A stretch of DNA of 64,000 nt. It comes from Candidatus Atabeyarchaeum deiterrae. GTDB taxonomy: Archaea; Asgardarchaeota; Atabeyarchaeia; Atabeyarchaeales; Atabeyarchaeaceae. The DNA lies in contig CP147780.1 in NCBI GenBank assembly GCA_037310415.1, forward strand, positions 2,048,001-2,112,000, written 5' to 3'. This document shows positions 59,573 through 62,795 of the stretch, one piece after another; position 1 is the first letter of the stretch; every line of letters starts with the position of its first letter. The translations under genes were made by a program, and so were the position numbers. Below the pieces are notes generated by a model, which saw nothing but the letters and a program-made list of their open reading frames with translations, was not told the origin of the DNA and did not search any database.

Positions 59573-60094
59573 CTATTCTCTCAGAAGTCCTTCTATTACG
59601 CTTGTCGAAACTTGATAGGCTGATTCATCAAGGACAGAAATAGGATAGATCTTGATGTCCTTGAATGTCTCTTCCAGTTCTTCGACTGTCAAGACGTGTT
59701 TATCCCACTTTGTTACCAGAACATAGACCTCAGCATCAGGAGAGTTTCTTCTCAGGTTTTCATGGTACTTGCGGAAAAGCTTGGAGGCACCCTCCAGATT
59801 CTCCTTAGATGATGAATCTACCATGAAAAGGAAAACTGATACCTTTCCGAAAAGAGTCGGTATCCACTGGTCCGTCGAATAGGTGTCTACGAAGCTTGTC
59901 TGCCCGCCACAGTCAAATGCGGAGACCATCACACCCTCTGAACCCTTAAACTCATAAAGGGATATGCCAACGCCGAAAGTTGGTCTGTATTCTTCAATTT
60001 CACTGAATTCCTTTTTCTCGAAGACATGCTTGATGAAGGTCGTCTTTCCTGACGATGGTAGTCCCATTATGAGTATCTTCAGTATTTTTGGCAT
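59573..60094 (-). CDS. Small GTPase, Rag/Gtr-like G domain
   Basis: G1 GLPSSGKTT, G2 PT, G3 DCGGQ, FMVDS, G4 TKWD; no C-terminal roadblock domain. Confidence 0.85.
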   Translation of the reverse strand: MPKILKILIMGLPSSGKTTFIKHVFEKKEFSEIEEYRPTFGVGISLYEFKGSEGVMVSAFDCGGQTSFVDTYSTDQWIPTLFGKVSVFLFMVDSSSKENLEGASKLFRKYHENLRRNSPDAEVYVLVTKWDKHVLTVEELEETFKDIKIYPISVLDESAYQVSTSVIEGLLRE

Positions 60095-60290
60095 TCTTTC
60101 GTTAACACCTAGCTATTGCTATTCTGATTCATGCGACCCATCAAGCTGCGAGCGTCAACTCCAAGATCCTTCTCGACGCAAGACGAACTCCCAATACAAC
60201 TATGCCGCGCAATTCCATATAACCGTATTCTGTTGAAAGACTTCTTTGGTGTGATTCACAAGTAGACCAGACACGTGACAAGAGCATTAC

Positions 60291-61031
60291 TCACACTGAC
60301 AACTGCTCCAATGTGTAGACTTTTTCCGGATACACTACTATGCCGCTCTCATTGATAGCCATAGCTCTGAGCCCCAATTCGGATTTGGTTCCCCTCATTT
60401 TGGTGATCTCAATACACCTGAACCGTAGGAGCCCCTTCTGAATTACCTGCAGAACGATTACTCCGTCAACTACGAACTCCTCAACTCCAAATCTTCCGAA
60501 TCCAATGGCGCCCCTAGGCACTTCTGAAGTAAGGACTGTAGTACATCTTAACTTTTTCAAAGCCGCACTGACGCGTTGCAACTCCCTGCGAACAATGTCT
60601 GTATTTCGGAATTGTAGGAGAAGAGCGGTAACCGAGTCAAGAACAATCCTCTTTGCCCCAATCTCATTTACAGTATACTCAATCGCCTTGATCAAGGGAT
60701 TTAGATTGAATTCTGCTGATTCAATGATAACATCAGAGGTCCTTGTTTTTGCAGCTGAGAAATCTATGAATGCAAGTTTCTTCGACGATTTCATTTCTGA
60801 AATTTCCCAACCGAAGCGTTGAGCGTCACTAATAACCTCATCTACAGGTTGCTCGAACGAGATATAGACTCCTGGCTCGTCGTAGAGTATTGCACCAGAG
60901 TACAGGAACTGTAGGGAGAAGATCGTTTTTCCACTTCCTGCTCCCCCTGCTACGAGCATCGTTCTCCCTTTTGGGAATCCGCCTTCAATGAGTTTATCTA
61001 GATTCGTTATTCCCGAAGGTGTTCTATCCAT
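60291..61031 (-). CDS. Single-domain KaiC/RAD55-like ATPase
   Basis: SGITNLDKLIEGGFP, GGAGSGKT, IVLDS, FGVEEFVVDGV, TKMRGT; ATG at 61031. Confidence 0.92.
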   Translation of the reverse strand: MDRTPSGITNLDKLIEGGFPKGRTMLVAGGAGSGKTIFSLQFLYSGAILYDEPGVYISFEQPVDEVISDAQRFGWEISEMKSSKKLAFIDFSAAKTRTSDVIIESAEFNLNPLIKAIEYTVNEIGAKRIVLDSVTALLLQFRNTDIVRRELQRVSAALKKLRCTTVLTSEVPRGAIGFGRFGVEEFVVDGVIVLQVIQKGLLRFRCIEITKMRGTKSELGLRAMAINESGIVVYPEKVYTLEQLSV

Positions 61032-61035
61032 TCTA

Positions 61036-61458
61036 TTATCTACCCTCCTGAAAGACTTCCCTGGCATCCTGTTGTGCAACAAAACTTTGCTCCCCAACGG
61101 CGTTCAGCGTCGCTGTGAGAATATCATCTTTATCAGGCACGCCAACGAATTTCCATGCGCCTATTATGATTACTGGGAGCGCAAGTATTCCCTCTTCAAT
61201 CACCATGCGGGGATCATCATCTATGTCAATTTCCTCAACTTTGACTGTGTCTCCGAATTGCTGCAACACTGAGTCGAGTATGGCCTTCGCAGCGCGACAG
61301 AAACCACACTGCTTGGAAGTGAAGAACCGCACATTGGATCTCATCAGTTCGTCCTCCATAACTAACTGTGCTCTGTACAGGTTGGCGGAAACAACTTGCG
61401 CCGACAGGCTCCCGTCTCTTTCGCCTCGACTTGAATAATCATGATACTTTGAGACCAC
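61036..61458 (-). CDS. Thioredoxin-fold protein (CGFC) resembling KaiB
   Basis: FFTSKQCGFC...EEIDIDDDPRMVIEEGILALPVI; start may be 61359. Confidence 0.8.
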   Translation of the reverse strand: MVSKYHDYSSRGERDGSLSAQVVSANLYRAQLVMEDELMRSNVRFFTSKQCGFCRAAKAILDSVLQQFGDTVKVEEIDIDDDPRMVIEEGILALPVIIIGAWKFVGVPDKDDILTATLNAVGEQSFVAQQDAREVFQEGR

Positions 61459-61476
61459 GTTTCCGTGGCACTTAAT

Positions 61477-61938
61477 TCACGAATCAGATTCGCAGATCCT
61501 TCTCGTCTTCAGCTCTCCTGTCAACATCGCTGCTTCGAAGAGTTTCCTTGCAAATTCTTGGAAATCCCTGTCGCAGAGTAAGGGAAAGACAACGGACCCC
61601 ATTGTGGTGAGCATCTTCTTATATCGTTCAGGCGTGTCCGGTCTGTCGAGAAAGAGCAACAGACAATGAGGCTTGCAGCGCAATGGTTCCAGATTGCCGG
61701 TGTAGTAGCTCATGACAACTCCTTCGCCCACTTCGAGCGAGATAAAGCCTGGCTCATCTCCACTGAAAGATGACAGACTGAAGATATCGTTCACTGTCTT
61801 GTCACTGAGTTCGAACGGGGGGTAAGAAGCTTTGAGGATCGGTTTGTCATTCTTTACATTATGTCCGATAATTGACACACACAAAAGATACGTCTCTTTG
61901 CCTGCGATGCATTTCTCAACACTAAGGGTTTTGGCCAT
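61477..61938 (-). CDS. Stand-alone uDENN/longin-like protein
   Basis: LLCVSIIGH...KPILKASYPP...MSYYTG...LLLFL pattern. Confidence 0.5.
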   Translation of the reverse strand: MAKTLSVEKCIAGKETYLLCVSIIGHNVKNDKPILKASYPPFELSDKTVNDIFSLSSFSGDEPGFISLEVGEGVVMSYYTGNLEPLRCKPHCLLLFLDRPDTPERYKKMLTTMGSVVFPLLCDRDFQEFARKLFEAAMLTGELKTRRICESDS

Positions 61939-61990
61939 CTCAGTTTCCTCCTTTCAGAAACCTACCGTTTGTTGAAGTAGCAGGTAACAT

Positions 61991-62290
61991 TTAGAGCCCA
62001 CAGGGATCCTCATTCACGCTACTTGATTGGCATTCTGATTCTCCCAAGTTTCTTCTCTGTGCAACGATCCGCGCCAGTTTCAAACCTTCCTCCGTGAGAA
62101 CGTAACTCAGGGCATCCGCAAATATGAGTTTCAAGTCGACCAACACGCGCAGGCGGGTAGCGACCAGTTTACTACGCAGTCCAGTTATCGCCTGAATTTG
62201 CTCAGCTTTTCTGGCGCCATCCATTATCGCCAGCAACACAACCTCCCCACATTCTCCTAGAGTCGCATCGAGGATTCCAAGATCTGTCAA
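61991..62290 (-). CDS. Small winged-helix protein
   Basis: LLAIMDG...IQAITGL...RLRVLVDLKLI...YVLTEEG. Confidence 0.75.
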   Translation of the reverse strand: MTDLGILDATLGECGEVVLLAIMDGARKAEQIQAITGLRSKLVATRLRVLVDLKLIFADALSYVLTEEGLKLARIVAQRRNLGESECQSSSVNEDPCGL

Positions 62291-62375
62291 GCGCCTGCCC
62301 CCAAGACCCCATCCTCAACAATCGTCACCAATTCTTCAACAGCGGTTACCCCGTACCAAGCCTGTCTACGACTGC

Positions 62376-62795
62376 CTACCCAGTTGTCTCTAAATCAATC
62401 CTCTTCACTTCGACCTTCGTGGTGCCTTCTAGTGACTCTATGAGGTCCTGCATTTCTTTGTCTTTAATGCTAATCTGTGAGGGATCAAAGTAAGCTTCGT
62501 ACAAGCATTTGTCTCCTTTGTAGCAGAATCCTGTCGAGTAGACGACCTTGAGGTTACGTTTCACAAATGTCTCACTCATCTGTTTGAGGTATTCTGGAGT
62601 AAGCTTCTTGATCTCTATAGATACCTTGACTGCTTCTGAACTAGTGGTCGGGATTAGTCTAACGGTCTTGGTGGACACAGCGAGGATCATTAATGCATTT
62701 GTGTTCTCCCCCAGAACCTTCTGAAATTCATTTGGCAGCAGTATGGGTTCATCAGAGATCTTCACCATCCTTGCGAACGTCACGTCTTGTGACAA
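62376..62795 (-). CDS. AbrB-like N-domain plus ACT-like domain protein
   Basis: ILLPNEFQKVLG; C-terminal ACT-like part VYSTGFC....CLYEAYF...LEGTTKVEV. Confidence 0.55.
   Translation of the reverse strand: MSQDVTFARMVKISDEPILLPNEFQKVLGENTNALMILAVSTKTVRLIPTTSSEAVKVSIEIKKLTPEYLKQMSETFVKRNLKVVYSTGFCYKGDKCLYEAYFDPSQISIKDKEMQDLIESLEGTTKVEVKRIDLETTG

Follow-up and report, generated by a model that had tools for sequence, protein, structure and literature searches.

A coupled thioredoxin-KaiC gene pair beside longin and Rag-like GTPase genes in Atabeyarchaeia: a candidate variant of a recurrent Asgard signalling module

In this study, we analysed a window of 64,000 nucleotides (nt) from the closed 2.76-Mb genome of Candidatus Atabeyarchaeum deiterrae (contig CP147780.1; G000:C1:2048001-2112000), a member of the Atabeyarchaeia, which are an Asgard lineage from wetland soil (PMC11291895). 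The window contains a cluster of six genes, which encode a protein with an ACT-like domain (p1), a probable small winged helix-turn-helix protein (p2), a longin-domain protein (p3), a thioredoxin, a KaiC-like ATPase and a Rag/Gtr1-type GTPase. Open reading frame calls, Pfam and NCBIfam scores, structure predictions and synteny comparison served as evidence. The cluster appears to be a so far undescribed route of redox/energy input to a GTPase switch. The explanation that we favour, with chances that we put at about even, is that it represents, in the Atabeyarchaeia, one form of a signalling module that recurs among Asgard archaea and is built around a coupled thioredoxin and CI-like KaiC. An initial annotation of the same DNA had described six co-oriented genes, and all six open reading frames were recovered on the minus strand (Table 1). 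Synteny is conserved and most domain calls of the annotation held, whereas the membership of the thioredoxin in the KaiB family, a CI-specific meaning of the KaiC motif VEEFVVD and the identity of p3 as a DENN protein did not.

Between the thioredoxin stop codon (TAA, 61038-61036) and the KaiC ATG at 61031 lie 4 nt, a distance that was also given in the initial annotation and that can be read directly in the sequence; in relatives this spacer is 1 nt. Judged from the sequence, the two genes form a translationally coupled pair. The remaining spacers of the cluster, from p1 to the thioredoxin gene, are 85, 52 and ~117 nt, and the gap between the KaiC and GTPase genes, previously put at about 200 bp, measures 196 nt. 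The upstream protein of the pair belongs to the thioredoxin fold family (Glutaredoxin, PF00462, 32.3 against a cut-off of 22.9; Thioredoxin, PF00085, 27.6 against 23.5). It also matches TIGR00411, the MJ0307 family, with an E-value of 5e-17, but its 61.7 bits fall below the equivalog cut-off of 92.75, and therefore it is a relative of this family and not an equivalog. Its CGFC redox motif, which had been noted before, and the cis-Pro (ALP) are invariant in 11 aligned sequences, and the C-terminal tail (K/R)E(L/V/I)xQEG is conserved. No close relatives of this thioredoxin subfamily were found outside the Atabeyarchaeia. The protein had been described as close to KaiB, and the quoted IDIDDDPRMVIEEGILALP is indeed present. 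However, with the KaiB model (PF07689), whose cut-off is 27, the protein scored 15.8 bits, and another, unrelated locus of the genome reached 15.0 bits. In 11 of 14 control genomes weak matches to the same model occurred, with a score above the cut-off only in Synechococcus. Such weak KaiB matches are generic to thioredoxins, and assignment of the protein to the KaiB family was ruled out.

The downstream partner is a clear member of the KaiC/RecA superfamily (KaiC, PF06745, 239.2 bits against a cut-off of 26.6) with the Walker A motif GGAGSGKT and the Walker B motif RIVLDS. In alignments to cyanobacterial KaiC it resembles the CI domain (181.7 bits) and not CII (47.2 bits), although it has FEQ where CI carries the catalytic pair FEE. 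No Ser or Thr is found at the CII phosphosite positions, and the CII segment ISTITD aligns with VEEFVVD. A CI-like KaiC that lacks the phosphorylatable residues of CII, as proposed in the initial annotation, is thus what the alignments support. The motif VEEFVVD had been taken as a mark of the CI ring. It is present, but VEEF-type motifs occur in most of the ~nine single-domain KaiC paralogues of the genome, and it is therefore generic to archaeal single-domain KaiCs and no special CI signature. The protein does not qualify as a circadian KaiC: it consists of one domain of 246 amino acids (aa) and scores 187.6 bits against 546 with TIGR02655 and 221.8 against 408 with PRK09302. These data bear on the idea of a true KaiBC-type timer, either hourglass or oscillator, in which KaiC autophosphorylates and a KaiB switches fold. 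A CI-like KaiC and a thioredoxin-fold partner predicted at the KaiB site (see below) would fit such a timer. Against it speak the single domain without CII Ser/Thr, the score far below the circadian cut-off, and a partner that falls short of the KaiB cut-off and keeps its CxxC; in addition, published surveys found KaiB only alongside full-length KaiC (Schmelling et al., 2017, PMC5520375). We consider a timer extremely improbable, and a circadian oscillator was rejected.

The complex of both proteins was modelled with ESMFold2 and our own alignments, in three runs and with three controls. The interaction prediction score from aligned errors (ipSAE) of the pair was 0.79, 0.80 and 0.80, compared to 0.00, 0.00 and, for the best control, 0.22; the predicted local distance difference test (pLDDT) of the partners was at least 81 and the contacts agreed to 100% between runs. 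In the calibration of the tool, 58 of 80 solved complexes attained the mark, as did 2 of 110 mismatched pairs; these figures are a rough guide here since own alignments were used. The modelled interface connects KaiC residues 89-120 with thioredoxin residues 13-23, 46-62 and 68-76, which comprise the surroundings of CGFC, the IDDDPRMVIEEGILALP segment and the KFVGVPD strand. By alignment to cyanobacterial KaiC, the KaiC segment is equivalent to the B-loop of CI and the helix that follows it. In the alignment, its residues F108/N109 are matched to the FD pair that the B-loop has in cyanobacteria and that we take, by our own matching of the numbering, to be F122/D123; mutation of F122/D123 in cyanobacterial KaiC reduces the binding of KaiB and SasA (bioRxiv 10.1101/2020.06.17.158394). 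The CxxC/cis-Pro groove of the thioredoxin is predicted to dock on the B-loop equivalent of KaiC, the site of fold-switched KaiB and of SasA's thioredoxin-like domain. This model agrees with the KaiB-type docking that had been suggested for the thioredoxin, and a passing score of this kind indicates likeness and not binding.

An identical six-gene order was found in six Atabeyarchaeia genomes or contigs, namely in the genome analysed here, in the sister genome CP147779.1 (SRVP18_Atabeyarchaeia-1; G001/L021) and in four metagenome contigs (L023, L024, L138 and L139), with protein identities of 61-83%. The neighbourhood is thus conserved, and because the same order recurs in all six, the arrangement is more than chance. 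The genes just downstream of the GTPase gene differ between relatives and are those for TatD, for a tetratricopeptide repeat (TPR) protein of varying orientation, or for LAGLIDADG and others. Therefore, the GTPase gene travels with the cluster. None of the 79 nearest KaiC loci outside the Atabeyarchaeia, which are mostly from DPANN and share at most 44% identity, had a thioredoxin, longin or GTPase gene as its neighbour. Wider conservation could not be shown with KaiC as the query and appeared later with a profile of the Atabeyarchaeia thioredoxin, which was searched over 300 Asgard genomes and of which the best 28 loci outside the family were inspected. At 21 of these loci the thioredoxin gene abuts a KaiC gene (~170-198 bits to the cluster KaiC), which is followed by a degenerate second KaiC (KaiC'); at the remaining seven the thioredoxin domain lies inside proteins of roughly 560-700 aa. 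Proteins of this size are seen in family f27 (L147, L148, L150, L152, L153, L158, L159 and L165), with the thioredoxin domain embedded at about residues 190-316.

The order around the pair differs between Asgard lineages. Ten loci from several genera of Thorarchaeota encode Ras, WD40, Ras, Roadblock, thioredoxin (CAFC), KaiC, KaiC' and a 768-aa protein, and the Roadblock gene just upstream of the thioredoxin-KaiC pair matches Pfam Robl_LC7 with 28.7 bits; since the ten are kin, they count as one lineage. A tight co-directional series of Ras, Roadblock, thioredoxin, KaiC and KaiC' is present in the G111 family. The thioredoxin of another genome, G081, has no CxxC and is still positioned before KaiC. 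In two further families (seven loci; f9, L185-L189, and f23, L195-L196) a CxxC thioredoxin gene directly follows a Ras-like GTPase gene, abutting or overlapping it, and no KaiC gene lies within 3 kb. By our own count, about five independent lineages carry a GTPase gene near the thioredoxin gene. The thioredoxin family is repeatedly tied to KaiC, Roadblock-superfamily proteins and small GTPases, and the Atabeyarchaeia cluster is a lineage-specific variant of this recurrent Asgard module. As in the Thorarchaeota locus, a homologous CxxC thioredoxin abuts KaiC, the gene immediately upstream belongs to the Roadblock superfamily, and small GTPases are encoded nearby. However, a longin replaces Roadblock, a Rag-type G domain replaces the Ras/Rab-like GTPases, only one KaiC is present without the degenerate second copy, and the ACT-fold and winged-helix genes are added, while the WD40 and 768-aa genes are confined to the Thorarchaeota side of this comparison. 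Because the platform protein and the GTPase subfamily vary between lineages and the thioredoxin-KaiC core persists, these arrangements point to functional coupling more than to inherited gene order.

Table 1. Genes and spacer of the cluster (positions in the window)
Feature	Position	Strand	Description
p1	62376..62795	-	139 aa; ACT-like C-terminal domain, probable AbrB/SpoVT-like N-terminus
p2	61991..62290	-	~82-99 aa; probable small winged helix-turn-helix protein
p3	61477..61938	-	153 aa; stand-alone longin domain, NPRL2/uDENN type
Thioredoxin	61036..61359 (alternative start 61344)	-	102-107 aa; CGFC active site
KaiC-like ATPase	60291..61031	-	246 aa from ATG; single domain
KaiC-GTPase spacer	60095..60290	-	196 nt
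Rag/Gtr1-type GTPase	59573..60094	-	173 aa; G domain without roadblock tail

The gene upstream of the pair encodes p3, for which the AlphaFold2 (AF2) model has a pLDDT of 78.6 with a core above 90. Its strands (E) and helices (H) are E18-26, E33-39, H46-59, E64-70, E73-79, E92-98, H103-120 and H126-140, a beta-beta-alpha-beta-beta-beta-alpha-alpha topology that corresponds to the longin fold. With VIA-align, the best match was a longin of Lokiarchaeota (8yqg; Z 12.7, root-mean-square deviation (rmsd) 2.9 over 128 residues), and chains of GATOR1 (8fw5_B, Z 12.5) and of the SEA complex (8adl_S, Z 11.6) and the Lst4 longin (Z 10.3) followed. SMCR8 and FLCN were further structural matches, and roadblocks scored lower (Z 7-8). 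Among language-model features (Atlas), the NPR2, C9orf72-like, DENND11, Avl9 and NPR3 clusters were the nearest neighbours (0.92-0.94). The likeness of p3 to NPRL2/uDENN is thus one of predicted fold and language-model features only. The initial annotation had called the protein uDENN-like, of which the longin fold of NPRL2/uDENN type stood. A full DENN protein was rejected, as p3 is a bare domain of 153 aa and has no core DENN, dDENN or NPRL2 C-terminal modules. We also rejected p3 as a split-off Rag roadblock tail, with Z 7.3 to the C-terminal roadblock domain of Rag versus 12.7 to longins. No Pfam match was obtained for p3 at E-values up to 1, and in an exhaustive HMMER search the sole credible match was one 50%-identity cluster, which is 70% identical. 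When two alignments of cluster proteins (A1 and A2) were used as profiles against the PDB, no significant match resulted, and no close relatives of p3 were found outside the Atabeyarchaeia. Residues 33-145 share homology with the N-terminal domain in a family of ~370-aa Asgard proteins, and this alignment was the input of the AF2 model. The orthologues share a conserved CX3C (C101/C105) in the beta4-beta5 loop, with R100 in four of five.

The ~370-aa family (L005:1447-2550, together with L004-L020) has no Pfam assignment. Matches related to p3, mostly to members of this family, were present in 23 of 41 genomes searched. In the genome analysed here, two of its members are full-length (377 and 391 aa), and adjoining one of them is a second short open frame of 150 aa (C1:1439874-1440176, 194327-195370).

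The last gene of the cluster encodes a Rag-type G domain, in line with the initial annotation. It matches Pfam Gtr1_RagA (PF04670) with 81.1 bits against a cut-off of 22, over profile positions 1-137 of 232, compared to 41.7 bits for Arf, and its closest PDB entries are Gtr1 and RagA (E-values 1.4e-12 to 2e-12). The motifs G1 (GLPSSGKT), G3 (DCGGQ) and G4 (TKWD) are present. With residue 173 as its last, the protein lacks a C-terminal roadblock domain. Outside the family, the nearest relatives are ~308 aa long and 37-40% identical, and in other Asgard families these Rag-like relatives have no KaiC or thioredoxin gene within 1.5 kb. Another Rag-like GTPase without a roadblock domain (197 aa, 57% identity to that of the cluster) is encoded ~3.5 kb past the window end, beyond a TrmB coiled-coil gene (L022:5518-6111, minus strand, corresponding to G000:C1:2115517-2116110), and a copy is kept in relatives (L023:2784-3329). 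These two are the only strong Gtr1_RagA matches of the genome (77 and 64 bits). In the metagenome contig L024 (4745-5530), the cluster GTPase carries an extra C-terminal extension of ~85 aa, for a total of 261 aa. Tandem GTPases of another sister assembly (G002; L106:713-1909, contig C8) are 67% and 76% identical to the GTPase of the window, and they are flanked by a probable glycosidase/dehydrogenase-like gene and an M24 peptidase-like gene.

For p1, the AF2 model (pLDDT 75.5; 50-72 for residues 1-50) has an ACT-like beta-alpha-beta-beta-alpha-beta fold at residues ~52-137. VIA-align matched it to the regulatory subunit of acetohydroxyacid synthase (AHAS; Z 10.6, rmsd 2.6 over 80 residues), the NikR C-domain (Z 10.5) and the ACT domain of Rel (Z 10.3), with aspartokinase ACT also among the matches; overall, the ACT domains and the NikR C-domain gave Z 10.2-10.6 at rmsd 1.9-2.7. 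Foldseek found the ACT domain of phosphoglycerate dehydrogenase (PGDH), NikR and IlvN at an E-value of 4e-4. In these fold searches the C-domain prevailed. Pfam gave neither an AbrB nor, at E-values up to 1, an ACT match, and the full-length protein matched NCBIfam PRK08577 weakly (E-value 4.5e-4, 20 bits against a cut-off of 140). Of the previous label AbrB/ACT, the ACT-like fold was therefore confirmed in the model, but the AbrB assignment is sub-threshold; an AbrB/SpoVT-like N-terminus is plausible from the sequence pattern. A similarity to SUMO/Smt3 (residues 58-115, E-value ~0.1-0.2) was rejected as probably due to chance, because the predicted fold matches ACT domains. Ten p1 orthologues average 80% identity and have an invariant Cys pair, C91/C97 (CX5C), in the ACT-like domain; no close relatives were found outside the Atabeyarchaeia. 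The p2 gene is present at the same position in all relatives. The winged-helix assignment made for it in the initial annotation was not borne out above threshold (HTH_45, E-value 5.5e-4, 20.3 against 25.5 bits; wHTH-PRTase_assc, 6e-4; HxlR, 1.6e-3, 18.7 against 20.8), and p2 is, from these sequence matches, probably a small winged helix-turn-helix protein.

It may be speculated that the CX5C of p1 and the CX3C of the longin are clients of the thioredoxin. This would suit a redox-maintenance or stress operon, in which an ordinary disulfide reductase serves both Cys pairs, KaiC is a stress-response ATPase of the generic kind that has been proposed for non-clock KaiC homologues, and no KaiB-like docking takes place. 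The intact CGFC and cis-Pro of an MJ0307-type thioredoxin and the conservation of the Cys pairs are in agreement with such an operon, as are other, more canonical thioredoxins of the genome, such as that at G000:146193-146480, which indicate that the one in the cluster is specialised. However, the high-confidence model places the thioredoxin groove on a KaiC loop that is free of cysteines, and the G081 thioredoxin lost its CxxC while it kept its place before KaiC, so the pairing does not require redox chemistry. In our view, an operon of this kind is quite unlikely.

The KaiC-GTPase spacer is weakly conserved and measures 125-196 nt across relatives (alignment of four relatives). A TATA-like TTATAT at 60217-60222 is not conserved among them, and a GGTG Shine-Dalgarno-like motif ahead of the GTPase ATG is. 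The folding energy of the 196 nt was no better than that of shuffled sequences (z = +2.18), and an Rfam scan of 59400-63100 found no family and one sub-threshold match. A promoter and terminator scan remained at chance level; it used a sigma-70 model, which is not applicable to archaea. Four metatranscriptome contig sets yielded one contig of 159 nt (59604-59762), which lies within the GTPase gene and is uninformative on operon structure. The GTPase gene may have its own promoter, yet be a functional part of the module.

Several observations weigh against the module that we favour. The full six-gene form is limited to one narrow lineage whose wider synteny is conserved too. The sister assembly G002 (94% complete) has the tandem GTPase copies without p1, a p3 orthologue or an orthologous KaiC, and its lack of the cluster may be a real absence or an assembly gap. 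In G025 (labelled Heimdall/Hodarchaeota), thioredoxin, KaiC and KaiC' are found alone, with no neighbouring Roadblock gene or GTPase. In the KaiC tree, the Atabeyarchaeia clade (100/100) and the thioredoxin-linked clade of Thorarchaeota and G111 (100/100) form a polytomy, and the orthology of the Atabeyarchaeia KaiC and the thioredoxin-linked KaiC of Thorarchaeota is left undecided. The 196-nt gap here and the spacers of 26-135 nt elsewhere are compatible with separate transcripts. The high score of the modelled complex may reflect memory of the solved KaiB-CI and SasA-CI structures, and its controls included neither a generic thioredoxin nor a paralogous KaiC. No cysteine lies within the predicted KaiC interface, and therefore classical disulfide exchange with KaiC is not indicated. 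In addition, the whole case is computational.

Part of these data could also mean that the thioredoxin-KaiC pair, perhaps with the longin, is the sole functional unit, and that the GTPase, ACT-fold and winged-helix genes are independent neighbours kept by inherited order in a young, narrow lineage. Spacers of 52-196 nt between the remaining genes and the poor conservation of the one before the GTPase gene would be expected from this, and the flanking genes for the TrmB coiled-coil protein, a Pro-rich protein, TatD and a metallo-beta-lactamase (MBL) are syntenic in relatives as well. The GTPases of G002, in another context without the cluster, point in the same direction. However, the GTPase gene remains beside KaiC while its downstream neighbours change, and other Asgard lineages independently pair Ras-like GTPase or Roadblock genes with the homologous thioredoxin-KaiC pair, or place a GTPase gene directly before the thioredoxin gene. 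Mere neighbourhood of the outer genes is, on balance, rather unlikely.

If the six genes do form a signalling module, formation of the complex would depend jointly on the ATP/ADP state of a KaiC hexamer and on whether the thioredoxin is in its thiol or disulfide form. The state of the complex would be relayed to the longin protein. This protein might act on the roadblock-less Rag-like GTPase as a platform, a GTPase-activating protein (GAP) or a guanine nucleotide exchange factor (GEF), as longin/Roadblock proteins do elsewhere. Potentially, the ACT-fold and winged-helix proteins supply small-molecule input and/or transcriptional output. Nutrient sensing of a proto-Rag/CASTOR-like type would be an analogy only.

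Archaeal KaiC-like ATPases have reportedly been proposed as signal-transduction hubs by Makarova, Galperin and Koonin in mBio in 2017. The cluster resembles such hubs in that the operon of a single-domain KaiC also encodes putative sensors and outputs, among them a probable helix-turn-helix protein. In the literature checked, which did not extend to Makarova et al. 2017, no description was found of a thioredoxin partner of KaiC or of a link of KaiC to longin, Roadblock or small GTPases. With the cyanobacterial KaiB/SasA-KaiC systems it shares a thioredoxin-fold protein predicted on the equivalent CI-like loop and adjacent, apparently translationally coupled genes for the partner and the ATPase. 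However, the partner is a genuine CxxC thioredoxin under the KaiB cut-off of Pfam, KaiC has a single domain without CII phosphosites and with FEQ for FEE, KaiA is absent, and there is no sign of fold switching or timing.

Similarities to eukaryotic Rag regulation by GATOR1 (NPRL2/NPRL3) and FLCN-FNIP lie in a Rag/Gtr1-type G domain encoded beside a longin, whose best eukaryotic matches in structure or features are NPRL2/NPRL3, Lst4, FLCN, SMCR8 and uDENN. In contrast to the eukaryotic system, the GTPase has no roadblock dimerisation domain and the longin has no DENN or NPRL2 C-terminal parts. A catalytic arginine could not be aligned, and neither TOR nor Ragulator nor a GAP activity is shown. 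The MglA/MglB pair of bacteria and archaea, a small GTPase with a Roadblock GAP, is likewise encoded as a small GTPase with a Roadblock/longin-superfamily partner, but here the GTPase is of Rag type and not of MglA type, the partner is a longin, and the KaiC-thioredoxin pair lies in between. NPRL2-like longins, DENN proteins and an operon for LAMTOR1-like, Rab-like and DENN proteins have been described in Asgard archaea, with no mention of KaiC (Liu et al., bioRxiv 10.1101/2020.10.19.343400). In MK-D1, GTPase genes generally lie outside operons with Roadblock or longin genes, and KaiC is not mentioned in that study either (Tran et al., 2024, PMC10933270).

Small GTPases with longin/Roadblock partners are a much-discussed eukaryote-like feature of Asgard archaea, and according to published work their genes seldom lie together with those of their regulators (PMC10933270). 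The genomic link of KaiC and thioredoxin to GTPase modules in several lineages, with different GTPase and platform subfamilies, would lead to a testable hypothesis, a redox/energy input to an archaeal GTPase switch. This hypothesis is also relevant to how the KaiB/SasA-KaiC interaction arose. Moreover, the minimal Rag-like G domain with its NPRL2-like longin is offered for comparison with GATOR1 and FLCN. A bolder proposal is that of an ancestral Asgard switch, in which a true thioredoxin would bind a CI-type KaiC at its B-loop and which would control longin/Roadblock-small GTPase modules in response to redox and energy state. We regard it as unlikely. If it were true, the KaiB/SasA-KaiC interaction would descend from, or have been paralleled by, the thioredoxin-KaiC pair, and the Atabeyarchaeia form, with its NPRL2-like longin and Rag-type G domain, would be a prokaryotic counterpart of metabolic Rag GTPase control.

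Upstream of p1, and divergent from it, lies a gene for a Pro-rich protein of ~265 aa (63092-63901, plus strand). Next comes a gene for a TrmB-like protein of 1162 aa, which contains a long coiled-coil insert (L022:1955-5443, plus strand), and both genes are kept beside the cluster in every relative examined.

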